Under the pieces are notes generated by a model that was given only the letters and a program-made list of their open reading frames with translations, was not told the origin of the DNA and did not search any database. Shown here piece after piece: positions 1 through 41,156 of a stretch of DNA of 41,156 nucleotides (positions are counted from its first letter, which is position 1; each line of letters starts with the position of its first letter). This DNA comes from a virus. The DNA is taken from IMG/VR virus record IMGVR_UViG_3300010429_001127. The stretch is one strand, 5' to 3'. The position numbers and the translations under genes are program-made.

Positions 1-346
1 TCTCCTTACAAAATTGTTTCTTCCCGAGGGAGGTATCGTAGCGCGAATTAATTGCGACCTTTCCTGGGGCCTCCGTGGTGAACTGTATGAACCCGCTCCC
101 AACACGATGTAGAGTCACGGTCTCCGCCAGCGGCTTGCTCGGCGCTGCGGTTGCAGTCTGGGTTGGTATCGGAGTCCGGGCGGTCGTGAGGGTCGTGACC
201 GGCGCGGCCGTCGTTGCTGCAGGTGTCGCTGTCGTGACGGCGGGTTGTGCAGGAGTGGCGGCCGGGGGGTGCTGCGAGGCCGCGATGCACCCGGTGGTAA
301 CGATAATCAGGGCTGCGATGCAGAACAGGATGATGCCCTTGTGCAT
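1..346 (-). CDS. Predicted lipoprotein, allele A (C-terminus runs off the window start)
   Basis: Not in ORF track; ATG at 346 reads MHKGIILFCIAALIIVTTGCIAASQHPP..., lipobox-like TGC, Thr/Pro/Ala linker, homologous to 38967-39491. Confidence 0.85.
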   Translation of the reverse strand, partial: MHKGIILFCIAALIIVTTGCIAASQHPPAATPAQPAVTTATPAATTAAPVTTLTTARTPIPTQTATAAPSKPLAETVTLHRVGSGFIQFTTEAPGKVAINSRYDTSLGKKQFCKE

Positions 347-362: not shown

Positions 363-378
363 TTATAAGAGGATAAAA
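363..378 (-). promoter_or_regulatory. Putative TATA box for lipoprotein A
   Basis: TTTTATCC / TTATAA about 20-30 nt upstream of ATG 346 in a short AT-rich gap; equivalent CTTTATTT at 39515-39522 in copy B. Confidence 0.5.
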
Positions 379-385
379 GTATCTT

Positions 386-1456
386 TTAACCCGTCGGACC
401 GTCAAACACTAATGCCCATGCCGCTCCGTCTGTTGTATCAAAGACGTCATACAGGAGCGACCCGCCGGCGTTGACCCCGGAGATCACCCAGAGTTTGCTG
501 TCATAGACGAAAGACGAGTGCGCGTACCGGGCGGCAAACGCAGCGGATGCTGTCGCCTGCGTCCATGTCCCGCTATCGAGATAATGGACATCGTTATACG
601 TCGCACCGGCACCCCCTCTACCGCCAATTACCCAGAGCTTGCCGTCATAGACCTCTGCGGTGTGCATCGCCCTTGCAGAGAGGGTAGGGGTTGTGATCTC
701 CGTCCACGTCGCGCCGGTATCGGAGTACCACACGTCGTTATAGAAGGTGGAGACCCCGTCGAAACCGCCGATGATCCACATTCCTCCGGCGTGGGAGGTC
801 ATGGTGTGCCGTTCCCGGGTGGGAAATTCTGCGTTCGTGGTCTCCTCATCCCATGTTATCCCGTCGACAGAACTCCAGACCTTTTTGCCGAGAGAGATAT
901 ACATCCGGCTGTTATGGACGCACCCTGCGCAGCCGATGCCGGAGAACGGGGCGGAACTATTGACGAGCTGCCATACGGTGCCATTTGCTGACTTATAGAC
1001 GGTAGAACTCCCGGATCCCGCGATGACCCAGATGTACCCATTGAACGAGAGGACGACGTGCCCGTATCGTGCGGAAAATGCAGCGTTCCGCATCTTCATG
1101 GTCCACTCCTTTGCGGTCAGGGTGTTCCAGATGTCGTTCGACCCGTCATAATCGTGCCCGCCGATCCGCCAGATCAGGCTGTCGTGGGTAATGAACGACC
1201 GGAACACGCCACCCCATGGCGAGAAGTAGGATATGGCGTCGGTCAGAACGGCTATCTTCTTTCCCCCTGCAGCCGGGAAGATCGCAACCTTGTCGCCAAC
1301 GGAGATCGGCGAGAGCTTGACGGCGACCCTCTTTCCTCCGGCCGTCGGAATAATCGCAACCTTATCCCCGGCAGCTACCGGAGAGAGCGGGATGCTGACC
1401 CGCTTTCCGCCTGCGGTTGGGAAGGTTATCACCCTGTCGCCCGGCGAGATCGTCAT
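386..1456 (-). CDS. Kelch-repeat beta-propeller protein with three N-terminal repeats, allele A; putative tail-tip receptor-binding protein
   Basis: Repeated R-x-x-H...W-x-I-GG...W Kelch motifs; last gene of the tail operon, start overlaps the hub-gene stop. Confidence 0.8.
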   Translation of the reverse strand: MTISPGDRVITFPTAGGKRVSIPLSPVAAGDKVAIIPTAGGKRVAVKLSPISVGDKVAIFPAAGGKKIAVLTDAISYFSPWGGVFRSFITHDSLIWRIGGHDYDGSNDIWNTLTAKEWTMKMRNAAFSARYGHVVLSFNGYIWVIAGSGSSTVYKSANGTVWQLVNSSAPFSGIGCAGCVHNSRMYISLGKKVWSSVDGITWDEETTNAEFPTRERHTMTSHAGGMWIIGGFDGVSTFYNDVWYSDTGATWTEITTPTLSARAMHTAEVYDGKLWVIGGRGGAGATYNDVHYLDSGTWTQATASAAFAARYAHSSFVYDSKLWVISGVNAGGSLLYDVFDTTDGAAWALVFDGPTG

Positions 1457-23085: not shown

Positions 23086-23175
23086 CCCTCGTTCTCATTG
23101 AATGGTGCCTGTCATACAGGAGCCACTTTCTTTTTACCTTTGTTGTATAGATGAATCTCATTTGTTATCGCCGCC

Positions 23176-24578: not shown

Positions 24579-24579
24579 G

Positions 24580-25314
24580 TTACGGTCCCTCCTTTGCATC
24601 AATTCTCGGGGCGAGCAGGAATTCTACACTCATGCCCTCGACCGTGCACGCGAACTTAATCGGGTGATCAGTCGACAAACTGACCGTGATATCCCCGCTG
24701 GCGCCTTTCAGCACCCGGGCGATGTCCTTCAGGTAGTCGAGAGAGAACAGGGAGGTGAACCATTCGGATGTGTCCTTGACAGCCTTGCCTTCGATCTCCT
24801 TCTTCAGGTGATCCGTGTCGCCTTCCGTCTCGAACTTGAGGGTGCCGCCCTTCGCGCTGATGGTTACCTTGTCGTTGATCAGCGCCATGGCTTTGATGAC
24901 CTCGTTCAGTTCTCCGGCGGGGATCTCAAGGACGGCCGGCAGCTGGATGTTCGGCGGGTTCGGGTCCTTCCGGATCGTGTTGACGTCCAGGAGCATGTTG
25001 CCGTAGTTGTACCGGCCGTCGCTCATCTGGATCCGGTTGCCGTTCTCGGCGATGGTGACCTGCCCGGTCTTGTCGAGGATGTTGAGCGCGGTTTTGGTCT
25101 TGCCGATGTCGAGCCCCATAACCTTGAGCCCTTCCCCGTCGCTCTTGTATTCCGCGAACGCTTCCTTGGGCAGCCGGGCGCTGACCATCGCGACGTTGGC
25201 GGTGTCGACCGCCCGGGTTTCGAGTCCTCCATCTTTCAGCCATACACGGCATTCCGGCGCGAGTGCGGCCACTGCGTCGATGAATGCCAGCAGTTTCTTG
25301 TGATCGATCTTCAT
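24580..25314 (-). CDS. pcn: PCNA sliding clamp, paralogue 1
   Basis: RAVDTANVAMV, SLFSLDYLKDI, DHPIKF, FLLAPRI: diagnostic archaeal PCNA motifs. Confidence 0.95.
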   Translation of the reverse strand: MKIDHKKLLAFIDAVAALAPECRVWLKDGGLETRAVDTANVAMVSARLPKEAFAEYKSDGEGLKVMGLDIGKTKTALNILDKTGQVTIAENGNRIQMSDGRYNYGNMLLDVNTIRKDPNPPNIQLPAVLEIPAGELNEVIKAMALINDKVTISAKGGTLKFETEGDTDHLKKEIEGKAVKDTSEWFTSLFSLDYLKDIARVLKGASGDITVSLSTDHPIKFACTVEGMSVEFLLAPRIDAKEGP

Positions 25315-27818: not shown

Positions 27819-28144
27819 GGCGTACCCCCCGCCGCGCTCAGCTGGCCGCTTTCCTGCGGGCTGCCGGTACTGAGTGGCCGGGCAAACGACCGGTTGCCAT
27901 TCCGGTTATGCCGCGCACCGCTGTAAGCTGTGAATCCCAGCCGGAGCAGCGCACAGGAGATCTCCATCTTGGCGATCCGGTCGGTCCTCCTTGCCAGCTC
28001 CGGGAAGTCTGCCGGGTGGTCCCTGACCCATATCAGCAGCGGCATGGTGCTGACGTATGTCTTCTCTGCCGGGTAAGCGGCTGCCTGGAGCGCGAGGACT
28101 TCTTTGTCGACCGTTGATTTGTGCGGGGATGCAGTGGTTAGCAT
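27815..28144 (-). CDS. Hypothetical protein
   Basis: Likely start ATG 28144; coupled to the MTase start. Confidence 0.55.
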   Translation of the reverse strand: MLTTASPHKSTVDKEVLALQAAAYPAEKTYVSTMPLLIWVRDHPADFPELARRTDRIAKMEISCALLRLGFTAYSGARHNRNGNRSFARPLSTGSPQESGQLSAAGGTP

Positions 28145-28656
28145 GCGACCATCGCCTCCCGGCCCACGAACCCGGTACACTCCCGGGCCCGGCGCCACGA
28201 GTAATTACAGGTGCCGCCGTTCCTGCAGCCCTGGTATTTCTCCCTGCGCTGACAGGGGTGGTGGACCGCGGCCTTCCGCCCGTGGTGGACCCGCTTGTGG
28301 TGCGACTTCTTGCCGCCGCGGCAATGCCAGCACTTCTCGGCGCCGGGCTTCATATAGTGCCGCTTGCACACCGGGCAGATCACGAACCCGCGCCGGTACA
28401 TCCAGTGGCATTTCCCACAGGCCGGCGTGCCGTTCTCGTCGAGGTTGTAGTATGCCTCCTTGCTGTGATAGGACCGCGGATCGTCGTGATGCGCGAGGGT
28501 TGCCGGGCGCCCGCAGTACTCGCAGATGGGGTTCTTCAGCAGGAACTCGGCTTCGATTGCCTGATACTCAGGATCTGCCCACCATGCTGCGGTCTGCTGC
28601 TTGTGGAGTTCGGCAGCGATGGCGCCGGGGTTGGTGGTCGTGATGGGGCTGATCAT
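28138..28656 (-). CDS. HNH-endonuclease-like zinc-finger protein
   Basis: CEYC...AHH...N....CGKCH plus further CxxC pairs; start ATG 28656. Confidence 0.7.
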   Translation of the reverse strand: MISPITTTNPGAIAAELHKQQTAAWWADPEYQAIEAEFLLKNPICEYCGRPATLAHHDDPRSYHSKEAYYNLDENGTPACGKCHWMYRRGFVICPVCKRHYMKPGAEKCWHCRGGKKSHHKRVHHGRKAAVHHPCQRREKYQGCRNGGTCNYSWRRARECTGFVGREAMVAC

Positions 28657-28754
28657 GGGTGCGTCAGCCTCCACGCTACCGCGCCGGTGATGATCAGCAG
28701 GATGACGAGCCCGACCAGGAGCCGGACACGCCAGATGAGGTCGGAGCGCATCAT
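28653..28754 (-). CDS. 33-aa single-pass membrane protein
   Basis: MMRSDLIWRVRLLVGLVILLIITGAVAWRLTHP; coupled at both ends. Confidence 0.5.
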   Translation of the reverse strand: MMRSDLIWRVRLLVGLVILLIITGAVAWRLTHP

Positions 28755-28963
28755 AGGACCGGCCGCCCCCGTGCACTCTTCAGGTACGGGAGATCGCGCC
28801 GCCCCTTCGGGACCCGCATATCCGGGCGGCAATCGGTGACCCGGGCGCACGGGATCCCGGCAACCTCGCAATAGTCTTCCTTCAGCTCCGGGTACTTCGG
28901 CACCCTCACGAGGTGGTGATGGCCGCACCGCAGGCAGTACCGGCGGATTTCACTGGTATGCAT
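28751..28963 (-). CDS. Small Cys-rich protein
   Basis: CLRCGHHH...C...C...C. Confidence 0.5.
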   Translation of the reverse strand: MHTSEIRRYCLRCGHHHLVRVPKYPELKEDYCEVAGIPCARVTDCRPDMRVPKGRRDLPYLKSARGRPVL

Positions 28964-28966
28964 TGA

Positions 28967-29464
28967 TTAACCCTCCATGACGATGGCCGCCACAATCGGG
29001 TACAGATCCTTCCATTGGAGGTCCTGCCGGGTGGCGATGCTTACTTCATCTGCGAGATCCTCGCGCTTCCGGGACCAGCACATATGATCGCGGTCCCGCA
29101 GGTACTCCCGCTTGAATTCGAGCTTCCGGACTGCTTCCCGGGTGGCCTGTTCGATGGCTGCCCGTTTCTCTGCCTCTTGTCGTTCCCGATCCGCCTTCCG
29201 GGTTTCCTCATCCTGGATGATCTTCCGCTGTGACATTTTTTCACGGCGGATCTTATCGGCAAGCTCCCGGGCCTTCTGCCGGATTGAGGTTTCAGGAAGA
29301 TCGTCACCTTCGAGAATGAACTCCTCAAGCATCTGGTTGACGAAGGCGGAGAGCATCCGCTTATTGCCAGTCATTGCGGTGAGCTTACGGGTGGCGAGAA
29401 AAACGACCTCTTGATCGAGGTAGAGGTTTGTCTGCTTGAAATTGATATCCTTCAGGGGGAGCAC
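28967..29464 (-). CDS. Putative DNA-binding protein (RHH-like N-terminus + coiled coil)
   Basis: TNLYLDQEV...LSAFVNQMLEEFI. Confidence 0.55.
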   Translation of the reverse strand: MLPLKDINFKQTNLYLDQEVVFLATRKLTAMTGNKRMLSAFVNQMLEEFILEGDDLPETSIRQKARELADKIRREKMSQRKIIQDEETRKADRERQEAEKRAAIEQATREAVRKLEFKREYLRDRDHMCWSRKREDLADEVSIATRQDLQWKDLYPIVAAIVMEG

Positions 29465-29493
29465 CCCCGCTGGATTTTCTTTCCTGAAATGGA

Positions 29494-29510
29494 ATTATAT
29501 AATATAATAT
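29494..29510. promoter_or_regulatory. AT-only palindrome ATTATATA-A-TATATAAT
   Basis: Perfect 8-bp inverted repeat in a strongly AT-rich patch. Confidence 0.45.
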
Positions 29511-29546
29511 AATCTTTTTTCTTAGTAGTAGTAGGAGGTGCAGGGA

Positions 29547-30686
29547 TCATTCATCCTCCCCCGCGCTCGTCAGGAACCAGTTCGCCGCTTTCTTCAGGAA
29601 GTCCGCCCGGGTCCGGATACCCTCGTATCGCGCCTGGATGAGTTCATCCACCATCCTGACCTCTTTCTCGGTGAAGAACCCGGACCGTTCGATCAGGTCA
29701 TCGGCGCACTTGTTCAGCTCCTCGCAGGTCATCGGGGTTTTGACAATCCGGATGCCGCCGGGCCTGATGATCTTCGCGCCATCGAGCCGGGCGCTCGCTA
29801 CGGCTGCCTGACCTTCCGGTGAGGCAAGATACTGCCGGCGAAGTACCGGACACTCTTTCTGGTTCACGATGAGGTTGCCGCTGCCGGCGCACTTGTTCCC
29901 CAGGACCTGCTGTTTGACCAGAAGATCGGTGGGTCCTGGGCACGGTTTGCCGGCCTTGCAGGGAGGTGTAAAGTCCGGGGCGGGCGGCAGGGTGGTTGCG
30001 GTCGTGAATGCCGGCTGGTTCTTTGCAGCTTCTGCGATCTCCTGTCTCCGGGCCTGCTCCTGATCGATCTGCGTTACGGTTTTGGGAGGATCGACCGGCT
30101 CGCCATCATGGAGCGGCGCGAAGAAGTGCTCGGGTTTCGCTGGCTCCGGATCCTTTTTTCCGATCTTGTCGGTTTTCATGCGCGAAACGGTGCCATGCTT
30201 AGTTGCATAGGTGCGCGTTTTCGTCGGTGGCTCTGAATCCTCACTACCGGATTTCCGGTAGTGAGAACGGTACTTTGACACGGTTTCCGGGTGGACGTTG
30301 CAGACTTCCGCGATCTTGTTGTCCGACCATTTCGACCATTCCTTGTCATTCAGCAGGCGCTCGACAGCCCGGCGTTTGTCCTCATTCGTCCTGCGGAGAC
30401 CATGGGTAGCATTGACGCCGGAAGCAAACAGGATCGCGTCCCGCATCTTACCCTCGTGGATGTTACAGAGCACCTTCTTGATGCCGGAGGATTGTGCAGC
30501 CAAGAGCCGGTGATACCCATCCACTAAGACATACTCACCGTCAACCCGGAAGACTTCCAGCGGCGGGAATTTACCGCCCGCCTTCATGCTCTCCGAGTAC
30601 TCATCAACGACCGCCATGTGCATGTTTACGCGGGGCTGCGTTGCGGCATCTTGTTTGATCTGCCCGATTGGGATAAGCTCTGTCAT
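29547..30686 (-). CDS. ParB/Srx-like N-terminal domain protein with HTH and Cys4 module
   Basis: PPLEVF...LVDGYHRLLA, NATHGLR, WSDNKIAEVCNVHPETV. Confidence 0.85.
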   Translation of the reverse strand: MTELIPIGQIKQDAATQPRVNMHMAVVDEYSESMKAGGKFPPLEVFRVDGEYVLVDGYHRLLAAQSSGIKKVLCNIHEGKMRDAILFASGVNATHGLRRTNEDKRRAVERLLNDKEWSKWSDNKIAEVCNVHPETVSKYRSHYRKSGSEDSEPPTKTRTYATKHGTVSRMKTDKIGKKDPEPAKPEHFFAPLHDGEPVDPPKTVTQIDQEQARRQEIAEAAKNQPAFTTATTLPPAPDFTPPCKAGKPCPGPTDLLVKQQVLGNKCAGSGNLIVNQKECPVLRRQYLASPEGQAAVASARLDGAKIIRPGGIRIVKTPMTCEELNKCADDLIERSGFFTEKEVRMVDELIQARYEGIRTRADFLKKAANWFLTSAGEDE

Positions 30687-30850
30687 GGACAGCCCGCCTC
30701 CCGCAGCCTGATGGCCCGGTGTTCATACAGCACCGGTACCGGCAGATCATAGATCGTCTGTACGTTATGCCGGGCCAGCTCCGCCCGGAGATCCTGCGAA
30801 CGTTCCCGGGCCGGGACCATCCGCTCAAGCATGCGTTTTCGCTTGCCCAT
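30683..30850 (-). CDS. Small hypothetical protein (55 aa)
   Basis: Not in ORF track; MGKRKRMLERM...; stop overlaps the ParB start. Confidence 0.5.
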   Translation of the reverse strand: MGKRKRMLERMVPARERSQDLRAELARHNVQTIYDLPVPVLYEHRAIRLREAGCP

Positions 30851-30856
30851 GCCGGA

Positions 30857-31039
30857 TCACACTCTCTTGCTATCTGCTGTCAGATCCCCGTGTTCGACCC
30901 AGACCAGTCTTTTGCACTTCACACATTGCCAGAGCGATCCTTTGCTGATTATCTCGCCACCCGCTGAGATTATCGAATGCTCGTGGGTTCGGCAGATCTT
31001 CTCAAATTCGTGTCCGCAACATTCTTTACATATTGCCAT
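30857..31039 (-). CDS. Zinc-ribbon protein
   Basis: CKECC...WQCVKC. Confidence 0.55.
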   Translation of the reverse strand: MAICKECCGHEFEKICRTHEHSIISAGGEIISKGSLWQCVKCKRLVWVEHGDLTADSKRV

Positions 31040-31045
31040 GCCGGA

Positions 31046-31849
31046 TCACCCCTCGACCGGTGCAGACAACGCCGGGTATCCCGTCTCCGGCTGTCGCTTC
31101 AGGCCGGATGCAAAGAGGATCGATTCCCGCCACCGGATCCTGATCTCCCGGTGCCCGCTGGTCGCTTCGAACCAGTACTCCTCACCGAACTCATCGCCCT
31201 TCGGCTGCAGCCGCCAGACCGGGCCTTCCGGGTACTGGTAGCCGTGATTATACAGGTACGAGTTGACCTCCCGGGCATTCAGGCCGCAGCGCTCTCCCAG
31301 CTGTGTAGGATTCAGCCAGGTGCCGCCCTCTCCATGGATGAGACACGGTGCCTTGAGCGCCTCGATGTATTCCGGCATGCCGCACTTTTTCAATGCAACC
31401 GCCTGGAACGCTTTCAGGTCGCCGCCAGTCAATCCGGCGAGGTTCCGGGCACGGTTCATCTCCGCCTCGATGGTCAGGACTGCCGGGCCAAGGGAAGGTG
31501 CCGCCGTCTCCCGGTCAGCGTCCATTTTCTCGAGGGCGATCTTCCGGAGATCCAGCAGCTGGTCCAGGGGCAGCTTGGATTTTGACGGATGGATGATCAG
31601 GAACAGGTAATCAACACCGGTCCGGTTCAGGCAGAGGAATTGCTGCTGCCCGCCGGGGGTCGGAAGGGATACGTAGGTTTTGTAAGGGCTCATTTTTTCC
31701 TTGAACCCCTCTATCGCGCTGTCGATCCCGCTCCGGCTGTACCCGATCATCTTGGCGATATCGAGTACCGGGATGACCGGCCCGATCGGGGAGTCCGCAA
31801 TCCGGAGCCAGCTCTCCATGCCTTCGGGTTTGAGGATCCGGACGGTCAC
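31046..31849 (-). CDS. Antirepressor-like protein (BRO-N-like + KilA-C/ANT-like)
   Basis: GTGA-coupled start 31849; VLDIAKMIGY, TPGGQQQFLCLN, NPTQLGER...AREVNSYL. Confidence 0.75.
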   Translation of the reverse strand: MTVRILKPEGMESWLRIADSPIGPVIPVLDIAKMIGYSRSGIDSAIEGFKEKMSPYKTYVSLPTPGGQQQFLCLNRTGVDYLFLIIHPSKSKLPLDQLLDLRKIALEKMDADRETAAPSLGPAVLTIEAEMNRARNLAGLTGGDLKAFQAVALKKCGMPEYIEALKAPCLIHGEGGTWLNPTQLGERCGLNAREVNSYLYNHGYQYPEGPVWRLQPKGDEFGEEYWFEATSGHREIRIRWRESILFASGLKRQPETGYPALSAPVEG

Positions 31850-32910
31850 GCGCCCACCTTCGCGAGGTTGCTGCGGTTGATCCATTCCATACCATTGTCG
31901 AATGAGACAAGCACTTCCGGCTGTCCCTGCGGGATGCGCTTGATCCTACCGGTGCCTTGGAAAATGACCGGGTGGCCGGTATGCCGGACCGTATCTCCAA
32001 TCCTGAAGGAGCCGTCGTCCGATGGCGTCGGAGACGGTGCAGGTTGCGCGATCGCTTCCAGGGCTTCCCGTGCCTCCTCTGCAAGCGTTTTATCATCCGG
32101 GGTGCCCATCGATTCGAACGTGGTCCCGCCGTTCTCGGTGTCGACCGAATATTCCTGCCCGACTGCCGGACCGGGTGGAACTACGTTTTCCGCCGTTTTC
32201 TGCACCTTGGCGTCTTTTTTCTTCTGCTTCGCTTCCTTCTTCGCCTGCCGGTCGATGGCATACCACTTCATGCCGACGGCGTTATCGTTCCGCTTGCTGT
32301 CAGGGAATGCCGCCCGGTACGCCTTGACGGCGGTCTCCCGGTCCTTGATTTCTGCGACGGCCTTGATCTCGTCCGGGCTCCACTTGCCATTCTCCATATG
32401 GGCACCGCCTCTCTTCTCCCGTGGCTCTGGCTTCTTCGCCTTGGCTTTGATGATCTGCCGTGCGGTGGGCTTCTTCCCCGGAAGTTCCTCCCGGGCCTTC
32501 GCGGCCTGCCGGTCCGCCTCCTTTTCAGTTTCGGTCAGGAGGTCGCCCGATATACCCCCGGGCGGTGTATCCTTCGGAACCTCGTGGTACTGGTCCCACC
32601 ACCGGGTCACCGTTGACTTGCCCCGGCTACTGTTCGGGAACGCTGCCTGATACCGCGTCCATGCGTCCTCCTTCGACTGTGCCACCCTGACGACGTCCTT
32701 CTCCGCGTCGCTCCAGGGCACCATCACGAAATGCTTTGGCGTCGTCGATGTCCGCTGCGGTGCTGCAACCCTCGCGAGAAACAGGTCGATCTCCTTCTCA
32801 ACATGACGGGCGTCGGTCTGTGTGATCCCCTCGACAGAGAAGCCGAAGGAGACAGTGGCCTTGCCGTCCTTGATTTGCGTATCCCGGTTTGCGTTGTAGG
32901 TTTCGATCAT
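31846..32910 (-). CDS. Protein with two Myb/SANT-like repeats and a C-terminal SH3-like domain
   Basis: WSDAEK...AAFPNSSR...RWW and WSPDEIK...AAFPDSKR...KWY; FRIGDTVRH. Confidence 0.65.
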   Translation of the reverse strand: MIETYNANRDTQIKDGKATVSFGFSVEGITQTDARHVEKEIDLFLARVAAPQRTSTTPKHFVMVPWSDAEKDVVRVAQSKEDAWTRYQAAFPNSSRGKSTVTRWWDQYHEVPKDTPPGGISGDLLTETEKEADRQAAKAREELPGKKPTARQIIKAKAKKPEPREKRGGAHMENGKWSPDEIKAVAEIKDRETAVKAYRAAFPDSKRNDNAVGMKWYAIDRQAKKEAKQKKKDAKVQKTAENVVPPGPAVGQEYSVDTENGGTTFESMGTPDDKTLAEEAREALEAIAQPAPSPTPSDDGSFRIGDTVRHTGHPVIFQGTGRIKRIPQGQPEVLVSFDNGMEWINRSNLAKVGA

Positions 32911-32928
32911 GCGAAAAATTCCACCCTT

Positions 32929-33081
32929 TCAGTCATCCAATTCGACAAAATAGGCAGCCGCGGTCATCCCGCGGTTGAGATCGTTCGCGAGTTCTTCCGC
33001 ATCCTTCAGAGCGACCGGGGTGCTATGCAGGTATCGGATTACCTGCCCGTTCACGGTCGCTCCGAGGTAAACAGGGGGCAT
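32929..33081 (-). CDS. Small hypothetical protein (50 aa)
   Basis: Not in ORF track; coupled to the PCNA-2 stop; MPPVYLGATVNG... Confidence 0.45.
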   Translation of the reverse strand: MPPVYLGATVNGQVIRYLHSTPVALKDAEELANDLNRGMTAAAYFVELDD

Positions 33082-33869
33082 CACAACCACCCCGCAGTAT
33101 CAGTCAGCGTATCATCGGATTCTATTCGGGGGGCGAGCGCATATGCAACAGTCAGCCCCGGCGCCATCGCTGCCGTTATCCGGATCGGATGGTCGGTGCC
33201 CATCTCGACCGATAACTGGTGCCCGGCAAGCACCCGAGAAAGGTCTTTCAGGTAGTCGAGGCTGAACAGGGATGCCGCGATTGCGGAACCACCACAGATC
33301 GCGATCGGGATCTTGCACTGGGTCCGGGTGTCGCCCATCGCCGCCATGGTGACGACCCCGGTCTTGAGGACCTCAATCCGGCACTTATCAGAAAAGACGC
33401 CGCAGATCCGGACGGCCCGGGCGAAGTCATCACCGCTGCAAGAGAATACCGCGGGGAGATCGGCTTTGAACCCGACCGTATCTTTCCTTATGGTCGTTTC
33501 GTCAAGCGTCTCGATACGGTACCGGTCCTTCCCGATTCCGTCGATATCAAGATAGGGGCGGACCGGATCCCTCCCGGCGCTCCATGAGAGGGTCACGGTG
33601 CCTTCCGGTGCCGGCTCTCCTTCCGTGATGCACCGGAGCGCCGAATCGAGCTGCGCGATGTCCAGGCCGAGGACTGCGCTGCCCGGGTAACCCTGGACCG
33701 CCATCCTGATATCGATCAGGCCAACATTCGCAGAATCAACGGTGAAGACCCGGGCCTCCCCATCTTTGATGTGGACGCGGCACTCACAGACCAGCGCTGC
33801 GAGGGCCCGGGTAAATTTTAGCAGCATCGGGTAGCCGATGGTGAATGAGCCGGGGTTGAAGGCGGGCAT
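33081..33869 (-). CDS. pcn: PCNA sliding clamp, paralogue 2 (divergent)
   Basis: FTVDSANVGLI, SLFSLDYLKDL, DHPIRI, YALAPRIE. Confidence 0.9.
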   Translation of the reverse strand: MPAFNPGSFTIGYPMLLKFTRALAALVCECRVHIKDGEARVFTVDSANVGLIDIRMAVQGYPGSAVLGLDIAQLDSALRCITEGEPAPEGTVTLSWSAGRDPVRPYLDIDGIGKDRYRIETLDETTIRKDTVGFKADLPAVFSCSGDDFARAVRICGVFSDKCRIEVLKTGVVTMAAMGDTRTQCKIPIAICGGSAIAASLFSLDYLKDLSRVLAGHQLSVEMGTDHPIRITAAMAPGLTVAYALAPRIESDDTLTDTAGWL

Positions 33870-33870
33870 C

Positions 33871-34272
33871 TCACAGCACCTCCTTCAGTGCCATGCGGAT
33901 GGCCGCGTTCTGGCGCTCCAGCCCTTTGCAAGTCTCCCTCAAGAATAGGTTACCGATCTCCAGTTTGCGGTGCTCCTTTGCCGTGTTCTGGATGGCCTCG
34001 GAGAGAAATTCACGATATTTTCCCTCGACCTCTTTTTCCTTTTCCAGTCGGGCTTTGAGTTCGAGGACCTCGCCGCCGAGCTGCTTGCATATCTCCCGCA
34101 GCTTGTCGCTCTCTCCTGCCTGCTGCTCAAGGGTTGCGATCTTCTCGGTCAGGGAGGCGATCTCAGCTCCGAACTGATTCCGTTCTTCCAGCACCCGGTC
34201 GAGCTCTCCCTGCGAGACTTCCAGATTCTTTCGGAGCTCGACCTCGAATCGGTTAGGCTTATGCGGGGGCAT
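33871..34272 (-). CDS. Coiled-coil protein
   Basis: Start at 34272 or GTG 34275; heptad pattern throughout. Confidence 0.65.
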   Translation of the reverse strand: MPPHKPNRFEVELRKNLEVSQGELDRVLEERNQFGAEIASLTEKIATLEQQAGESDKLREICKQLGGEVLELKARLEKEKEVEGKYREFLSEAIQNTAKEHRKLEIGNLFLRETCKGLERQNAAIRMALKEVL

Positions 34273-35069
34273 CACGCACCCCCGAAAGTCCGCTGGATAT
34301 ACTTCTCGACGATCTCCCTGGTGACTGCCGACTGCGTGCCGAGTGCCCGGAGGCTGTCGATCAGGCAGGCGCGGGCGGTCAGGAAGTCGGTCGCCGTGGC
34401 CTCGATCCTGAGGTTCTCGTAGTTGTTGAGGTTGACCGTGGCGGAGAGGGTGATCTCCTTGACGGTACCGGTTGCCGCAGGGGACGTGCAAGGCTCTTGC
34501 GGTGCCGGCTGTTCTTCTTTCTTGAGTTCCGCCGCAGTCTTCAGGACCGGCGCCGGATCCTGTTTCTGCGTCTCGATCCTCTCAATGCCGGCTGCTGCCA
34601 ATCCGTCTCCCCGGCGGTCATCCAGCAGGCCGAGCCGGACCATATCACCGGGCTTAATCGGGCAGTCCGGGGCATTCAGGTACTTCAGGAGCAGGTCAGA
34701 ACCGCAGCTATAGGTATTCTTGGAGCCATCAACCTTCAGGACGACATTCTTACCGGGGGTCCCGACGAACTCCCCTGTCACATACTTCGCGTTCTCCGGC
34801 TCCTTTGCAGGGGCCGGGGGCTGGCCGGGAACCTGGCTCTTTGCCCTTGCCTCATCTGCCTCGGCCTGCGCGATCTCTGCCTTTGAAGGGGCGACCATGC
34901 TCCTGGCAGTACCCTTCTCGACTGTTACCTTCGCGAATGATCCGGGAGGGAAGTTCTTCTGTGCCGGTACCCGGTCCTCCGGGGGAACGAAGATGATCTT
35001 CCCGCCGACAATGACGTTTGAGGGGTCGTACTCGCTGACCCGGCCTACGATCGTTGCCATGGCGGTCAA
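34272..35069 (-). CDS. Hypothetical protein, possibly tandem OB-fold
   Basis: Two beta-rich segments separated by Pro/Ala linkers. Confidence 0.55.
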   Translation of the reverse strand: MTAMATIVGRVSEYDPSNVIVGGKIIFVPPEDRVPAQKNFPPGSFAKVTVEKGTARSMVAPSKAEIAQAEADEARAKSQVPGQPPAPAKEPENAKYVTGEFVGTPGKNVVLKVDGSKNTYSCGSDLLLKYLNAPDCPIKPGDMVRLGLLDDRRGDGLAAAGIERIETQKQDPAPVLKTAAELKKEEQPAPQEPCTSPAATGTVKEITLSATVNLNNYENLRIEATATDFLTARACLIDSLRALGTQSAVTREIVEKYIQRTFGGA

Positions 35070-35566
35070 GCCTCCTCTTTCGCGAGGAGGACGTAATCGG
35101 TGCGGACCGGGTCAGCTGGCGCATGAATGATCCGGTCGAGGTCCTTCTTTCCCTTGATGATCGCCTTCACGTCGGACTGCGCGATGAACGTCCCGGCCTT
35201 CTCCAGCTGTGCCTTCATCTTCTCTTCGGCTGCTGCTTTCAGGTTCTCGCGGATCCGGGTGAGCTGGTCCGGGTAATGCTGCTCGAGGATGGCGATATCA
35301 ACCGTCTTGTTGCCATAGACCGGTGTCGGGACGATCCGGTAAAAGTCATCCTCCAGGATGCACGTCTCAACGGCATGTTGCAGCAGTCCCTCGCGGTCCT
35401 CCGTGAGCTTCTGCTGCTTCTCCCGTAAGATCGTGATCTGGTTCTCCAGGTCCTCTATCTGACCGTCGATGAAATGAATCTGCGTCGGGATGGTTCGGTC
35501 CTCCTTAACGACCAGCGTCGGGAGGGGGTCGGTCTTGAGGCTCGCGGCCTCGTCTCGTGCTTCCAT
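35066..35566 (-). CDS. Hypothetical coiled-coil protein
   Basis: 166 aa, N-terminal coiled coil; Gam/Gp157-like position only. Confidence 0.6.
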   Translation of the reverse strand: MEARDEAASLKTDPLPTLVVKEDRTIPTQIHFIDGQIEDLENQITILREKQQKLTEDREGLLQHAVETCILEDDFYRIVPTPVYGNKTVDIAILEQHYPDQLTRIRENLKAAAEEKMKAQLEKAGTFIAQSDVKAIIKGKKDLDRIIHAPADPVRTDYVLLAKEEA

Positions 35567-35569
35567 CGC

Positions 35570-36055
35570 CTACACCCCCTCGGCGAGGACCTGAATCTGG
35601 AGGAGCATGTCGTCGATGGTGCCCCGGCCATCGCCCCTCCGGATCCGGACCCGGGCCTCTTCCGCGATCGCGGCGATCTTCTGCATGGGCGGCTCAACGT
35701 ATGGCACCTCGACGATGTCCATGCCATGGAACCTGAAGGTCGCGAGCGGCTCGTCCTGACGGTCCACCGTGGCGGCCGCCTGTGTGATCTTCTGCAGGTC
35801 CTCCGCGTCGACCACCTTGCCGGCCTTATAGACAACCTTCGGGTCCTCCACCCATATCGGGCCGAACCCGCAGTCACGGCACCAGAATGCCCACCCTTCG
35901 CAGGGATCGTGGCTGCCGTACACGAGCTGCCCGCCACATTCCGGGCATACCTTGATTTCATCGGACGATTCAGAATAGCTGGCAGTTCCCTTTCCCTCGT
36001 TTGAAGGCGCTGGAATCGGGCTGCCATTTTCAGATTTTGCTGTTACCTGATTCAT
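35570..36055 (-). CDS. Zinc-ribbon protein
   Basis: Likely start ATG 36055; CPECGG...WCRDCGF. Confidence 0.6.
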   Translation of the reverse strand: MNQVTAKSENGSPIPAPSNEGKGTASYSESSDEIKVCPECGGQLVYGSHDPCEGWAFWCRDCGFGPIWVEDPKVVYKAGKVVDAEDLQKITQAAATVDRQDEPLATFRFHGMDIVEVPYVEPPMQKIAAIAEEARVRIRRGDGRGTIDDMLLQIQVLAEGV

Positions 36056-36197
36056 GTGCCACACTTCCGATCTTTTCGACGATCTTAATCCTGCCGCTCT
36101 CCATGACGAGAAGCGCACCGAGCGGGTCCTCCTGCGCGAAGATATCGAAGGCTTCACGGCTGACCTGTCTCGGGTACTGGGCTGCTGCAGAGGTCAT
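36030..36197 (-). CDS. Small hypothetical protein (55 aa)
   Basis: Not in ORF track; MTSAAAQYPRQVSREAFDIF... Confidence 0.5.
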   Translation of the reverse strand: MTSAAAQYPRQVSREAFDIFAQEDPLGALLVMESGRIKIVEKIGSVAHESGNSKI

Positions 36198-36203
36198 GCG
36201 CGA

Positions 36204-36578
36204 TCAGGCCCCCTCGCAGACCTTGGTTTCTGAGCTGACGATAGTCTTTGTACGATCCATCAACCCTTCTCGTGCCGCGAGCGATCGGACGCCCTCATTT
36301 ACGAAGTCATCATCGTCATATCCCTTCTCGCGGAGCGCGGCCTCCTCATCCCACAGGCCCGGTTTAAGCTCGCCGGTTATCAGGTGACAGTTGGGGTACA
36401 ACCCCTCCTGTTTCGCAATGAACTCCACCCCGGCATTAGCAATGGGGACCTTCGAAAGCTTCTTGCCCTCTGAGATCCACTTCGCCAGAATCTTCCCAAG
36501 GAGATCGTCGTGGAATGGGTCCATACGGGCGCCGATGAAATCGGTTGTCCGCTCATCCAGTGGTGTCTTGTTTCCCAT
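36204..36578 (-). CDS. First gene of the early operon, hypothetical
   Basis: 124 aa directly after the AT-rich divergent promoter region. Confidence 0.65.
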   Translation of the reverse strand: MGNKTPLDERTTDFIGARMDPFHDDLLGKILAKWISEGKKLSKVPIANAGVEFIAKQEGLYPNCHLITGELKPGLWDEEAALREKGYDDDDFVNEGVRSLAAREGLMDRTKTIVSSETKVCEGA

Positions 36579-36709
36579 TGTTTACCACAATTAAACAATG
36601 TGCACAACTTGTTTAAAAAACTTTCTATCAACGTTCACTATTCGTAAACAAATATAAATTCGGTAATTTTGATATACTCAAGCACTCATTTGTTAACCGG
36701 TGTGGCACA
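36576..36709. promoter_or_regulatory. Divergent promoter / operator region (lysis-lysogeny switch candidate)
   Basis: AT-rich; perfect IR CATTGTTTA-7-TAAACAATG; TATA-like TTTTTTAAA (minus, 36612-36620) and TATAAA (plus, 36653-36658). Confidence 0.7.
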
Positions 36710-36973
36710 ATGGGGACTGAACCGCTTATCCCTCATGGTTTTAAAATACCGAAATCGAAAAGTGATAAGATCGTTTCGTATGCAAAAGAGCGAGACGTGA
36801 AGATCTCGGTTATCCTGAACGAAGCTGTGACTGAATATATCAACCGCCGGGAGCATCCGGAGCGCCAGATTGAGATGATCCAGCATGTCCTCCTCACTCA
36901 TCCGGAACTTCTTGACGAGCCTCTACGTCGTTACAACGCTTGGAATTTATCAGGGCGGACCTCGAACCAATAA
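36710..36973 (+). CDS. Ribbon-helix-helix repressor candidate
   Basis: HGFKIPKSKSDKIVSYAKERDVKISVILNEAVTEYI fits the RHH pattern; divergent from the early operon. Confidence 0.75.
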   Translation: MGTEPLIPHGFKIPKSKSDKIVSYAKERDVKISVILNEAVTEYINRREHPERQIEMIQHVLLTHPELLDEPLRRYNAWNLSGRTSNQ

Positions 36974-37154
36974 GATTAATGATTTTTTCATTTTCAAGTG
37001 CCTTTTTTATCAGCCCATAAAAATTGTCCACAAAGTGGTCACCCGCTCCTGCAGTATCCATACAAACGCATGGCAGATATTAAGGACAGAGCATAGCGGG
37101 GGATGAAAGTGATAACCTAAAGGTTGTATGAATGTTAACCAGATCGAATAAACT

Positions 37155-38372
37155 CTATTTAGGCTTTCCTACCTTCTCCCGGATCACGTCGTCCCGGACA
37201 GTCTTCAGCGTCTCGATATCCCGCAGGGCCTCAAGGGAGAGCGGCCTGCTGCAGCGCGAACAGAACCCGGACCCTGCAGCATTCTGGAACCCGCACCGCG
37301 GGCACTTGACCGGCTTCAGTGGGTCGGCCGGCTGATCTTCCGGGTTCAGGTCCACCCCCTCGATCTGCAGGATCTTGTTGTCGATATCCCGGCCGGACAG
37401 GTGCACGTAGACTGCTGCCATGCCGGACCGCTCGCTCCACCCGGCATACTTCCGGAGCTCCGATTCAGTGAGTTGCTTGCCTCGCTGGGTCAGTCTGCCG
37501 TGCCGGAAGGCATGGGGGTTCGTCTTCTTCTGCACCCCCGCAAGGTCCCGCAGGCGCTTGAAGAGGTTCTGGACGGTACGTTCATCTAGGCGTGAGTAGG
37601 TTGTGGTCCCCCGTTTCCGCGAGGTGACGAAAAGGGGAACGTCGGCGTCATGCTTCAGCGGATGGAACTTATCGATCCAAGTCTGGAGATCCGGGGCGGC
37701 GCTCACGATCCGGATCTGCCGCTGGCCGGTCTTGCCGGTGACGGTCAGGACCGCACCGTACTGGTCAAACTTGACATGCCCGACATTACAGCCCAGGAGC
37801 TCGTTCAGCCGGGCGGCGCTGTCCCAGTACGTGGCAACGATCGCACGGTCCCGCTGGGTCTCGCAGACATCCAGGAGCTTTGCCACGTTCCCGGCCTGCA
37901 GGACCTTCTCGGGCGGGATCTCGTGCCGGGGCCTCGCTGGCTTGAAGGCGACGATCTTCTTCTCCGGCAGGAGCCAGCGATAGAAAAGTTCCAGCTCCTG
38001 GACATCATGGAACGCGGTGACCGGGGATTTTGTCTTCTTCCGGTGCAGGAAATAGTCCTCGATATCGTGCGGCTGCACGGCCTTCGCGTCCTGGAATTTA
38101 TACCAGATCAGGAACGTATAGATTTTCCAGAGCTTGTTCTGGATTGTCAGTGCGCTCAGGTTCCGGAGCTCCAGCGATCGCAGGTAGCCCGATAAATATT
38201 CACGATTTTTATAATCAAGGTTTTTGAATTTGTGCCACACTTCCATGATCTTTTGTTGGTGCAGGCCGTATATTACGCCATTGTCCTGTACAAGGTTGAG
38301 GGCCTTCGACGAATGACTGGCACAATATCGTGGCGCAAGTGCAGATGGGCGAGGGTTGCCAAGACAGGTCAA
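37155..38372 (-). CDS. int: Tyrosine integrase with C-terminal zinc ribbon (start uncertain: TTG 38372 or ATG 38247)
   Basis: WDSAARLNE (R), HAFRH (HxxR), VYVHL (Y), CPRC...CSRC. Confidence 0.95.
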   Translation of the reverse strand: MTCLGNPRPSALAPRYCASHSSKALNLVQDNGVIYGLHQQKIMEVWHKFKNLDYKNREYLSGYLRSLELRNLSALTIQNKLWKIYTFLIWYKFQDAKAVQPHDIEDYFLHRKKTKSPVTAFHDVQELELFYRWLLPEKKIVAFKPARPRHEIPPEKVLQAGNVAKLLDVCETQRDRAIVATYWDSAARLNELLGCNVGHVKFDQYGAVLTVTGKTGQRQIRIVSAAPDLQTWIDKFHPLKHDADVPLFVTSRKRGTTTYSRLDERTVQNLFKRLRDLAGVQKKTNPHAFRHGRLTQRGKQLTESELRKYAGWSERSGMAAVYVHLSGRDIDNKILQIEGVDLNPEDQPADPLKPVKCPRCGFQNAAGSGFCSRCSRPLSLEALRDIETLKTVRDDVIREKVGKPK

Positions 38373-38433
38373 AGGCGTCAGGTTGAGGGCCTGATCTCGT
38401 AGGAGTTCGAGGGTTCAAATCCCTTCCCTCGCA
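38349..38433 (+). tRNA. tRNA-Leu(GAG), 85 nt; probable integration target / att region
   Basis: Acceptor GCGAGGG/CCCTCGC+A, anticodon stem TCAGG/CCTGA with loop TTGAGGG, long variable arm, T-loop TTCAAAT. Confidence 0.9.
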
Positions 38434-38512
38434 TACTCATTTTTGATAATCTATATCTCCATTTCTGGGTAAGGTTTATATTCCGAGAGGTTTTAGGTTA
38501 ACCTAACAAATC

Positions 38513-38653
38513 ATGACCCGCTTCCATATCCGGGCCCGCGTCCGGAAAGCCCGGAAGGAGATTGACGAGAAAGCGCAGGCCGTCCTCTCCCATTACCCCG
38601 TGGCGGATCCCGGGGACCGGCGCCGGGCCGGTATGTGCATGTGCGTGCGGTAG
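38513..38653 (+). CDS. Small basic protein (46 aa), possible recombination-directionality or regulatory factor
   Basis: Not in ORF track; TTTATATT at 38475-38482 upstream; MTRFHIRARVRKARKEIDEKAQAVL... Confidence 0.4.
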   Translation: MTRFHIRARVRKARKEIDEKAQAVLSHYPVADPGDRRRAGMCMCVR

Positions 38654-38667
38654 GGCTGCCGGCTCTC

Positions 38668-38994
38668 TTATTTTAACTCCATTCTCTCATCGATGGAGAT
38701 CAGCGAGTCGTTGATCTTAAAGACCACCACGACGAACTCACAGAGCAGCCTCCAAAGAAGGTTGCCAAGGAATATTACCCCCAGACCCGCGATATATGCC
38801 TCCTGAGCAGTTTTGTATGACCAGGGAGAGGTCCGTCCCCAAACACAAATAGAGATGCCGGCAAGTAGCAGGACGACGACCCCGAGGATGTAGACGATGC
38901 AGATCGTATATCTCGTTATGAATTCATCGAAGGTGAAGAAGTCCTCAATGGATTTCATTATCGGTTTCATGCGTTCGTAATCACCGCCTGCCAT
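38668..38994 (-). CDS. DUF4282-like two-TM membrane protein
   Basis: FFTFDEFIT...VYILG...LWRLLCEFVVVVFKINDSL pattern. Confidence 0.75.
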   Translation of the reverse strand: MAGGDYERMKPIMKSIEDFFTFDEFITRYTICIVYILGVVVLLLAGISICVWGRTSPWSYKTAQEAYIAGLGVIFLGNLLWRLLCEFVVVVFKINDSLISIDERMELK

Positions 38995-39491
38995 CCATAA
39001 CAGCCACTGGAGACGATCTTATACTGCCCCGGGGTGATGATGTTAAATGTCACTTTATTGGAATTCTTCCGGGTGGTTGCCAGGCCGCTCAATAACGTGA
39101 AGTCGATTGACTTCCCGGTGAGGGTAACCCGATAAGGGGCGGCGGAGCACCCGGTCACGGACGGCGTGAGCGAGTTCCCGTATGCCGCATCTATTATGAT
39201 CTTCCCTGGAGCAACGACCGTAAAGGATCCCGATGACGGGCCGGTTCCTTTTAGTGTCACGGTCTCCGCCAGCGGCTTGCTCGGCGCTGCGGTTGGTGCG
39301 GTTGCCGTCGGTGCCGGGGCTGTCGTCCGGGCGGTCGTGAGGACCGACGTCGTAGCCGGCACGGTGGTCCCGGGCGTCGCTGCTGTGAAGGAGGTTTGAG
39401 GAGGAGTTGCTGCAGGGAGCTGCGAGGCGGCAATGCAGCCGGCAGCGGCTACGATCAGGATTACGGCGCAAAAAAGAAGTCCCTTGTGCAT
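38967..39491 (-). CDS. Predicted lipoprotein, allele B
   Basis: Likely start ATG 39491: MHKGLLFCAVILIVAAAGCIAASQ; lipobox AGC; Thr-rich linker; C-terminal beta domain. Confidence 0.85.
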   Translation of the reverse strand: MHKGLLFCAVILIVAAAGCIAASQLPAATPPQTSFTAATPGTTVPATTSVLTTARTTAPAPTATAPTAAPSKPLAETVTLKGTGPSSGSFTVVAPGKIIIDAAYGNSLTPSVTGCSAAPYRVTLTGKSIDFTLLSGLATTRKNSNKVTFNIITPGQYKIVSSGCYGWQAVITNA

Positions 39492-39529
39492 AATCTCTTT
39501 TAAACTATCGCGGGAAATAAAGATATTCC

Positions 39530-40603
39530 TTAGCCGGTCGGTCCGTCGAACACCAATGGCCACGTCGCCCCATCTGTAGTATTGAAGACATCATAGAGAA
39601 GCGAGCCGCCGGTGTTGATGCCGGAGATCACCCAGAGCTTGCTGTCGTAAACGAATGATGAGTGCCCCCATCTCGCGGAGAACGCGGCGGAAGCGGTCGC
39701 CTGCGTCCATACCCCGCTGTCCAGATAGTAGACGTCATTATACGTCGCGCCTGCAGCGCCCCGGCCCCCGATCACCCAAAGTTTGCTGTCGTAGACTGTC
39801 GCGGTGTGCATCATCCTTGCGGAGAACAGGGCGGATGCTGTGATCTCCGTCCACGTCTGCCCGGTATCAGAGTACCACACGTCGTTATAGAAATTCGTGG
39901 CGTTATCCGTTCCGCCGATGATCCATATCCCCCCGGCATGGGAGGTCATGGTATGCCGCTGCCGGGTCGCATACGCCGCGTTCGTGGTCTCGGTATCCCA
40001 CGTTATGCCGTCGGCTGAACTGTAGACCCTCTTATCGACGGAAATATACATCTTCCCGTTGTGGACACAGCCGGCGCAGCCCCAGCCGGAGAACGGGGCG
40101 GAACTGTTGACGAGTTGCCACGTGGTCCCGTTCGCTGACTTGTAGACTGTTGAGGTCCCACCCCCCGCGAGGACCCAGATGTAACCGCCAAATGAAAGGA
40201 CGACGTGCCCGAACCGTTCGGAAAATGCGGCGTTCCGCATCTTCATGGTCCATTCCGTAGCGGTCAGGGTGTTCCAGATATCGTTCGATCCGCTGAAATC
40301 ATGCCCGCCGATCCGCCAGATTTTGTCGTCATGGACCATGAAGGAGCGGTAGACCCCGCCCCACGGGGAGAAGTAGGATATGGCATCCGTAGGAATGGCG
40401 ATCTTTTTGCCTCCCGCTGCCGGGAAGATCGCAACTTTATCCCCCACGGAGATCTGCGAGAGCTTGACGGCGACCCGCCTGCCGCCGGCTGTGGGGACGA
40501 TTGCGACCCTGTCCCCGGCAGCCACCGGGGAGAGCGGGATGCTGACCCGCTTGCCGCCTGCCGCCCGGAAGGTCATCACCTTATCGCCCGGCGAGATTGT
40601 CAT
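39530..40603 (-). CDS. Kelch beta-propeller protein, allele B
   Basis: About 80% identical to 386-1456 by manual comparison. Confidence 0.85.
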   Translation of the reverse strand: MTISPGDKVMTFRAAGGKRVSIPLSPVAAGDRVAIVPTAGGRRVAVKLSQISVGDKVAIFPAAGGKKIAIPTDAISYFSPWGGVYRSFMVHDDKIWRIGGHDFSGSNDIWNTLTATEWTMKMRNAAFSERFGHVVLSFGGYIWVLAGGGTSTVYKSANGTTWQLVNSSAPFSGWGCAGCVHNGKMYISVDKRVYSSADGITWDTETTNAAYATRQRHTMTSHAGGIWIIGGTDNATNFYNDVWYSDTGQTWTEITASALFSARMMHTATVYDSKLWVIGGRGAAGATYNDVYYLDSGVWTQATASAAFSARWGHSSFVYDSKLWVISGINTGGSLLYDVFNTTDGATWPLVFDGPTG

Positions 40604-41156
40604 GAGGCATCCCGGGAGAGGCTCGTGAGGCCCTGCTCGAGAGTCGCAGTCACCTCGTCGTCGGTCACGTCCGTGACAGTCCCGATCTCGACCTCCGGCT
40701 CGCCGTTCTTTATATCCCGGATCACCGCCCGCATCCGGGAGATATGCTCGGTGAATGTCCGTTTGAGCTGGAGATACGCCCGGAACTGTGAGTCCGGGAT
40801 CACGGTCACCTGCGTGCGGTTGACGGTGCCCGCTCGGTCGTAGACGTACCGGATATCGACGATCCGGTAATCCCCGGATGTGATCTGCGTGAAGCCCGAG
40901 AACGCGAGCAGTTGCAGCTTCCGGAGGTCGGACCGGGCCCGCAGGGTTACGTCGTATTTCAGGATCGGGGTGCAGTAGTAGTCGTAGAGGTCATCCGCCC
41001 GGTCGTCCGCGTCATCCTGTGAGGAGATATCCTCATTGATCTCCTTGTAGGTCCGGGGGGTCTTCCCATTAGTGATCTCGCTCGTCTCCTTGACCGACCT
41101 GTACCATTCAGATTTGGCAAGCGCCTTGCACTTGACAATGATCCGGTTGAAGTTCT
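40600..41156 (-). CDS. Baseplate hub / Tal-like protein, C-terminal part, allele B (truncated by the window end)
   Basis: Near-identical to 1453-2012 with substitutions and one 3-bp indel. Confidence 0.9.
   Translation of the reverse strand, partial: NFNRIIVKCKALAKSEWYRSVKETSEITNGKTPRTYKEINEDISSQDDADDRADDLYDYYCTPILKYDVTLRARSDLRKLQLLAFSGFTQITSGDYRIVDIRYVYDRAGTVNRTQVTVIPDSQFRAYLQLKRTFTEHISRMRAVIRDIKNGEPEVEIGTVTDVTDDEVTATLEQGLTSLSRDAS

Follow-up and report, generated by a model that had tools for sequence, protein, structure and literature searches.

A lipoprotein cassette behind the Kelch tail-tip gene of a probable archaeal siphovirus and its possible role in excluding incoming viruses

The viral contig IMGVR_UViG_3300010429_001127 of IMG/VR, which was analysed over its full length of 41,156 nucleotides (nt) and is called the window here, carries at positions 38668-40603 a gene for a Kelch-repeat protein, which is directly followed by genes for a small lipoprotein and a membrane protein of the DUF4282 type. 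An earlier note on this DNA proposed that the first two genes represent an archaeal analogue of the pb5/Llp module of phage T5, i.e. a receptor-binding protein (RBP) and a cognate lipoprotein that acts in superinfection exclusion. This raises the questions of whether the lipoprotein really belongs to the Kelch protein in front of it, and what it may do at the cell surface. The source of the window is most likely a 39-kb temperate archaeal siphovirus with a methanogen-type host, and positions 38668-40603 would represent the end of its tail operon and an accessory cassette. Judged from the sequences compared below, the lipoprotein does not appear to be an allele-matched partner of the Kelch head. 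We tentatively read the lipoprotein cassette as an envelope-modifying 'moron' with a probable role in the exclusion of incoming viruses.

The locus is present in the window in two versions, and both show the order of Kelch gene, TATA-like motif and lipobox protein that had been described in the earlier note. The lipoprotein gene of version 2 (38967..39491, minus strand) codes for 174 amino acids (aa) with a signal peptide and lipobox, a stalk rich in Thr, Pro and Ala and a jelly-roll C-domain of about 100 aa, the signal peptide ending in the lipobox AAGC. The gene of version 1 (2..346, minus strand) is cut by the contig end after the first 115 aa, and the rest of its C-domain is represented by protein P0125. 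A lipobox of the form xxGC after a hydrophobic N-terminus is present in both alleles. The spacer between the Kelch and lipoprotein genes of version 2 amounts to 38 nt, and a TATA-like motif follows the upstream stop codon before allele 2 (39516..39526, minus strand) as well as before allele 1 (372..382, minus strand). These are the only two sites in the 41-kb window that match ATAYHTTTWTY, compared to 0.13 expected by chance, and each is followed after about 30-40 nt by the ATG of a lipoprotein gene. The DUF4282-like gene was confirmed for version 2, where a 100-aa protein with two transmembrane segments (38668..38970, minus strand; hydrophobic segments at residues 16-34 and 58-76) matched PF14110 with 52.5 bits against a gathering cut-off of 27 (7.6e-14, profile positions 1-85 of 86); version 1 ends at the contig edge. 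The ATG of this gene overlaps the lipoprotein stop codon in version 2 (ATGA), indicating translational coupling.

The position of the lipoprotein gene is shared with related viruses, in which at least seven members of the same protein family are encoded after the last tail gene and preceded by the same promoter-like motif. The arrangement of tail-tip gene, motif and lipoprotein gene was seen again in at least five more loci of related viruses, and the motif is conserved after the upstream stop codon in seven viral loci. In the related loci, it has the form ATAC/TYTTTATC, starts a few bases from the upstream stop codon and precedes the lipoprotein ATG by about 30-40 nt. Directly downstream of a tail-tip gene, the lipoprotein gene is found in both arms of the window and in loci L012, L019 and L017, and its position is kept behind three types of tail-tip protein, namely a Kelch propeller, a BNR propeller and a non-propeller protein. 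Loci L010/L011 (lipoprotein P0002) and L012/L013 (P0133) share the order of a non-Kelch protein, the lipoprotein and a zinc-ribbon/bPH/SHOCT protein, next to the same tRNA and integrase region, with an integrase 91% identical to that of the window. A relative of this non-Kelch protein with 30% identity precedes the lipoprotein in L019/L020 (P0129), where the next gene codes for a protein of 106 aa with two transmembrane segments; L018 (P0127) contains the lipoprotein, a zinc-ribbon protein with two transmembrane segments and a 46-aa open reading frame (ORF), and L017 (P0155) a BNR-propeller protein and then the lipoprotein. The gene after the lipoprotein gene differs between viruses and mostly codes for a small membrane protein, the products in L010 and L012 being those with no membrane segment. 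Such a variable second gene is typical of accessory cassettes near attachment sites.

A word-index search with the lipoprotein returned P0002 as its only relative, and an exhaustive profile search with the C-domain yielded 36 representatives. About 30 of these share the full architecture and represent a so far unnamed family of archaeal proteins with about 30 clusters. Its members consist of a signal peptide ending in xxGC, a stalk of 40-100 residues rich in Thr, Pro, Ala and Val, an entry motif of the form P-L..V-T-L-x-G, and a C-domain of about 95 residues with an invariant Phe, two invariant Cys and a near-invariant Trp, which usually ends in NA; nearly all full-length members contain the lipobox. 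AlphaFold2 modelled the C-domain from 32 sequences as an eight-stranded beta-sandwich or jelly-roll with a predicted local distance difference test (pLDDT) value of 93.7, superseding an earlier model from a three-sequence alignment with a pLDDT of 58.6. The nearest folds are generic jelly-rolls, including GOLD and collagen-binding domains, carbohydrate-binding modules (CBMs) and C1q/TNF-like and nucleoplasmin-like proteins. Template modelling (TM) scores were 0.36-0.59 with Foldseek against the PDB, Z values from VIA-align reached at most 8.4, which is rated as a common arrangement, and no function follows from these matches. Neighbours in the fold atlas include archaeal clusters annotated as 'cell surface glycoprotein' and zinc-ribbon-anchored archaeal proteins, and the jelly-roll domain appears to be in general use as a surface module of archaea. 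Some atlas clusters and protein P0134 (358 aa) carry the same jelly-roll C-domain behind an N-terminal zinc ribbon and a transmembrane helix and have no lipobox. A profile search with the lipoprotein against PDB sequences gave nothing meaningful, and tblastn gave no matches in 50,697 phage records.

We favour an exclusion role because the product would be anchored at the surface, has its own promoter-like motif and is encoded after the tail genes and before the attachment site together with a variable, mostly membrane-bound partner, and because viruses with only 33-38% identity in their tail proteins keep it directly after the tail-tip gene, the place that marks exclusion lipoproteins in coliphages. 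The genes for the exclusion lipoproteins of T5 and T1-like coliphages lie directly downstream of the tail-tip or RBP genes (PMC9586334), and an exclusion role similar to that of T5 Llp is plausible by position only. As a mechanism, we propose that a triple-repeat anchor plugs the Kelch protein into the tail tip, and that its exchangeable propeller head would contact the cell envelope, probably at a glycan. The two-gene unit behind the Kelch gene, beginning after the TATA-like motif, would be made at the host membrane. There, the lipid-modified Cys would anchor the lipoprotein, the Thr/Pro stalk of about 50 residues would hold the jelly-roll at the level of the S-layer, and the two-transmembrane DUF4282 protein would be co-produced through translational coupling. 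The surface domain of the lipoprotein could then hinder the adsorption or entry of incoming viruses. The jelly-roll itself would recombine independently at the junction of stalk and domain, with the wider family of archaeal cell-surface lipoproteins as its source. We infer the surface exposure, the timing of expression and the exclusion function alike.

The cassette might instead be a captured archaeal envelope lipoprotein that benefits the host in adhesion, glycan or nutrient binding or S-layer tethering, or is neutral, and that takes no part in conflicts between viruses. Its variability would then be due to relaxed constraint or to other viruses using the lipoprotein as a receptor. This explanation, which we consider doubtful, is in line with the generic binding-type jelly-roll (GOLD, CBM, collagen-binding), with the lack of correlation between lipoprotein and tail-tip protein described below, and with the genomic location of homologues in cells. 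At least three family members are chromosomal: the cellular P0130 cluster is found on a contig of 450 kb, flanked by MscL/DUF2099 genes on one side and ScmC/thioesterase genes on the other, cellular P0126 beside the genes for POR and ferredoxin, and cellular P0128 beside flavin reductase and Robl_LC7 genes. However, the place behind the last tail gene and the conserved motif are kept even at 33-38% identity of the tail proteins, which argues for a virus-specific role. Several points still weigh against exclusion as that role. The chromosomal members point to an ordinary cellular role of the domain, which the viral copies may simply have retained, and a receptor-blocking exclusion protein should track the RBP among relatives, which the lipoprotein does not. 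The promoter is a sequence motif only, and the lipoprotein matched no Pfam, PHROG, NCBIfam or PADLOC family in searches that did not test homology to Llp or Cor specifically.

Whether lipoprotein and Kelch protein change together depends on how the two versions relate to each other. The earlier note had spoken of two copies; as two loci of one genome, these were not borne out, since the window represents one circular unit genome of 39,144 base pairs (bp; 2013-41156) plus an alternative arm. Positions 1-2012 recur at 39143-41156 with a spacing of about 39,145 nt, and the last 127 nt of the contig (41030-41156) are identical to 1886-2012, with the next base differing, so that the path re-enters the shared backbone there. 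This closing identity of 127 nt appears to be the signature of an assembly path with k=127 that re-enters an already used node. The window is the whole contig and all viral, its 41,156 nt being the length of the longest contig listed for both Kelch proteins. Two independent contigs with only version 2 were 100% identical to the window, L007 over about 1,900-10,100 and L006 over 28,967-41,156, and the contig behind L006 has 39,199 nt, which equals 39,144 + 55 and is the length that closure of a circle at k=55 would give. Because the window is the whole contig and closes on 1886-2012, and because the contigs with version 2 only match its backbone at 100%, the two versions are apparently alternative arms within a virus population and not two loci of one genome. 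Positions 1-1885 would accordingly be the alternative arm of the tail-tip cassette from a variant sharing the backbone, which is identical between the variants wherever available contigs overlap. A tandem duplication of a provirus was also considered and rejected, based on the lack of host flanks, the 127-nt closure and the 100% identity of the version-2-only contigs to the backbone.

The Kelch gene of version 2 (39530..40603, minus strand) codes for 357 aa and that of version 1 (386..1456, minus strand), which was found only on this contig, for 356 aa. The start codon of allele 2 overlaps the stop codon of an upstream tail gene for a 529-aa protein (ATGA). Both proteins were assigned as Kelch-repeat beta-propellers by the Pfam families PF24681, PF01344 and PF13418. 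PF24681 scored 76.9 and 80.6 bits in the two alleles against a cut-off of 50 (1.8e-21 for allele 2), and several Kelch motifs were also above their cut-offs in both. Residues 1-75 consist of three copies of a 24-residue motif, representing an N-terminal anchor that is followed by the propeller; a search with the anchor only matched just the two alleles of the window. The distant relative L017, whose tape-measure fragment, 116-aa protein and homologue of the 529-aa protein are 29-38% identical to those of the window, codes at the equivalent position (L017:6343-7587) for a protein with the same triple-repeat N-terminus, in which a BNR/Asp-box propeller takes the place of the Kelch propeller. The counterpart of the 529-aa protein in L017 comprises 1,518 aa (L017:1787-6343) and contains a DUF2341 domain (33% identity, 4e-59). 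Kelch and BNR propeller folds are both known to bind sugars. Because the Kelch gene combines a conserved anchor with an exchangeable, variable head and closes the tail operon, in which it is coupled to the baseplate genes, we read its product as receptor-binding, most likely as a distal tail protein or RBP that is presumably carried on the virion. Modular phage RBPs such as those of lactococcal siphophages or T4-like fibre tips likewise have conserved N-terminal anchors and swappable C-terminal heads; the locus in the window resembles them in that the triple repeat joins either a Kelch or a BNR propeller and that a recombination boundary lies in the upstream gene. A Kelch-type propeller as the RBP head of an archaeal virus was not described in the literature searched.

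The two Kelch alleles are 82% identical in their amino acid sequences, with 0.97 synonymous (dS) and 0.11 non-synonymous (dN) substitutions per site and an omega value of 0.11, and are old and under purifying selection. An ancient allele has recombined into a backbone that shows no differences wherever available contigs overlap it. Divergence between the arms begins within the last ~130 codons of the gene for the 529-aa tail or baseplate protein; the C-terminal part of its version 2 (40600..41154, minus strand) runs off the contig end and is 98% identical to 1745-2012 on the nt level, dropping towards the 3' end. From there, the nt identity decreases stepwise from 94 over 88, 83, 79, 77 and 74 to 69%, and the lipoprotein C-domain can be aligned only as protein. 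The Kelch alleles differ in each blade at the residue after a conserved Arg (ARY/ERF, SGI/SGW, TRE/TRQ, ARA/ARM and ARY/ARW). These differences would fit a propeller of which one face has changed its ligand specificity.

The lipoprotein alleles consist of two parts, with about 55% identity in signal peptide and linker and 36-38% in the C-domains, and an island of identity at the junction of stalk and C-domain (39252..39295 vs. 110-153; 43/44 nt identical, 40 nt exact), as claimed before. This island encodes ...TAAPSKPLAETVTL, and its 40-nt run sits exactly at the boundary. The peptide is almost unchanged in other alleles, but they use different codons for it, which indicates that the island does not reflect a family-wide constraint on the nt sequence; it is likely a conversion or crossover tract. 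A functional element at the nt level was considered as well and is less likely, the codons not being kept in other alleles. A second island of about 18 nt (~172-189 / 39317-39334), encoding LTTAR, lies within the divergent stalk, and an identical block of 28 nt (336-363 / 39481-39508) spans the 5' leader and the first codons of the lipoprotein gene.

Comparing the C-domains with the tail-tip proteins in front of them, we found that the two Kelch-linked alleles, with tail-tip proteins of 82% identity, are only 36-38% identical. Allele 2 shares 46-49% identity with P0002, the closest relative of its C-domain, and allele 1 shares 47% with P0133, in both cases with an unrelated tail-tip protein. 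Conversely, P0002 and P0133 follow similar tail-tip proteins (~60% identity over the last 47 residues), yet their C-domains are 40% identical and belong to different subclades. In the maximum-likelihood tree, allele 1 grouped with P0123, P0127 and P0133 (support 95/88), and allele 2 was placed apart from it with P0129, P0134, P0002 and the cellular P0126. Forcing the Kelch-linked lipoprotein alleles together lowered the log-likelihood by 19 units (approximately unbiased (AU) test, p=0.049), a borderline significance obtained with about seven pairs. Because of the crossover-like island at the stalk/domain boundary and this incongruence of the tree, the C-domain seems to be exchanged independently. 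The data point to a cassette that does not track the tail-tip protein, with the reservation of few pairs and a borderline p value.

In a strict analogue of pb5/Llp, each lipoprotein allele would block the receptor of its own Kelch allele, and the pair would be exchanged and co-evolve as a unit. The two genes are indeed adjacent and both differ between the arms, the Kelch alleles vary at an equivalent loop position in every blade, as would fit specificity and lipoprotein changing together, and there is the coliphage precedent (PMC9586334). Nevertheless, such a pair is unlikely: the C-domains of the two Kelch-linked alleles are not sisters, P0002 and P0133 diverge behind similar non-Kelch proteins, allele 2 is nearest to a lipoprotein with an unrelated tail-tip protein, and the breakpoint marked by the identity island separates the Kelch-linked half from the C-domain. 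The co-variation of Kelch and lipoprotein put forward in the earlier note thus reduces to one swapped segment on one backbone (n=1), and the comparison of phylogenies it had proposed gave lipoprotein alleles that assort apart from the Kelch alleles, the result it had named as speaking against its own proposal, at the borderline level stated. What stands of the analogy are the lipobox features, the position and the separate motif; the matching of alleles does not. When the lipoprotein C-domain was co-folded with the Kelch propeller (residues 70-357), the score was 0.01, which is no evidence either way.

The features shared with T5 pb5/Llp and the Cor proteins of T1/phi80-like phages are a gene for a small exported lipoprotein behind the RBP gene with its own expression signal (here a motif only), a pair of Cys in the mature domain and the location in a variable genome region. 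In contrast, the mature part of T5 Llp comprises about 60 aa. That of the window lipoprotein amounts to about 150 aa, including a jelly-roll on a long Thr/Pro stalk; the lipoprotein moreover does not track the RBP, belongs to a family with chromosomal members, and showed no sequence similarity to Llp or Cor in family searches not aimed at them. Because the host of the window virus would have neither an outer membrane nor a TonB transporter, the allosteric jamming mechanism of T5 should be inapplicable. With morons of the lambda bor/lom type, the cassette shares a self-contained unit of putative promoter and envelope-protein gene, which is placed after the tail genes and before attachment site and integrase and varies in content; it differs from them in its archaeal setting and its new protein family. 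Finally, a role in egress or progeny protection, with late-made lipoprotein and membrane protein breaching or detaching the S-layer or masking receptors on lysing cells, would agree with a lipoprotein and a coupled two-transmembrane protein at the end of a late operon and with the prophage exported proteins XepA and YomS in the fold list (but with Z values of about 7, within noise), and is nonetheless improbable in view of a partner gene that is not conserved and lacks a membrane segment in L010 and L012, a separate candidate lysis cassette at 17.3-22.3 kb with PKD and beta-helix proteins, and a separate promoter-like motif that suggests expression independent of the late operon.

The remaining parts of the window agree with a temperate virus. 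Upstream of the locus, the genes for terminase, portal, capsid, tail terminator and a 521-aa tape measure protein follow in this order and represent a complete siphovirus-type module; a PCNA gene and the promoter style suggest an archaeal host. The large terminase (15334-16671) shares 48.8% identity with its counterparts in two Synechococcus phages and less than 31% with those of the other listed phages. For an archaeal virus, the former is an unexpectedly close match to bacterial viruses. A tyrosine integrase of 363 aa with a C-terminal zinc ribbon (37155..38246, minus strand; PF00589, gene call in L006) lies next to a full-length tRNA-Leu(GAG) detected by ARAGORN (38349..38433, plus strand), which likely marks the attachment-site region. 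This tRNA is complete rather than partial inside the circular genome, and the region is 86.6% identical in the L010/L011 virus. Between the accessory cassette and the tRNA lies a conserved 46-aa ORF (38513..38653, plus strand; called in L006-L009, with a homologue in L018), whose Arg-rich product ends in CMCxR, matches no family and might be an excision or regulatory factor. Contigs from RNA libraries compared with 21157-41156 gave short pieces of 100% identity over the early region, positions 38921-39131 and stretches of the genes for the Kelch and 529-aa proteins, although such contigs can neither define transcripts nor rank genes. The longest and deepest contig of 100% identity, from two metatranscriptome runs (X12, X13), covers 21242-22285, a low-GC region with a 237-aa ORF without Pfam family. 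Searches of IMG/VR, the JGI metagenome collection, GTDB species genomes and INPHARED with the Kelch protein, the 529-aa protein and the window DNA revealed no close relatives and only distant bacterial Kelch proteins.

To our knowledge, almost nothing is known about host recognition by tailed viruses of methanogens or about exclusion by their lysogens, and nothing comparable to this locus was found for archaeal viruses in the literature searched. Bacteriophages are known to carry lipoprotein morons linked to an RBP gene; what would be new here are the family to which the protein belongs, its archaeal context, which lacks an outer membrane, and the way in which parts are shuffled as cassettes. 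It is hardly probable that tailed viruses of the methanogen type use a conserved, separately promoted lipoprotein cassette as an archaeal superinfection-exclusion system, in which a shuffled jelly-roll head is homologous to host lipoproteins that may be receptors or partners, so that the viral copy would act as an S-layer decoy or dominant-negative replacement. The locus offers a natural pair of variants, which are identical over overlapping contigs and differ in the tail-tip cassette. It combines a modular tail-tip protein with swappable propeller heads, either Kelch or BNR, and an unnamed archaeal lipoprotein family common to viruses and cells, which occupies the position of the exclusion lipoproteins of coliphages. 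Should the exclusion role be demonstrated, the cassette would be without precedent as a receptor-level exclusion module of archaeal tailed viruses, as far as the literature was searched, and it would point to the receptor.

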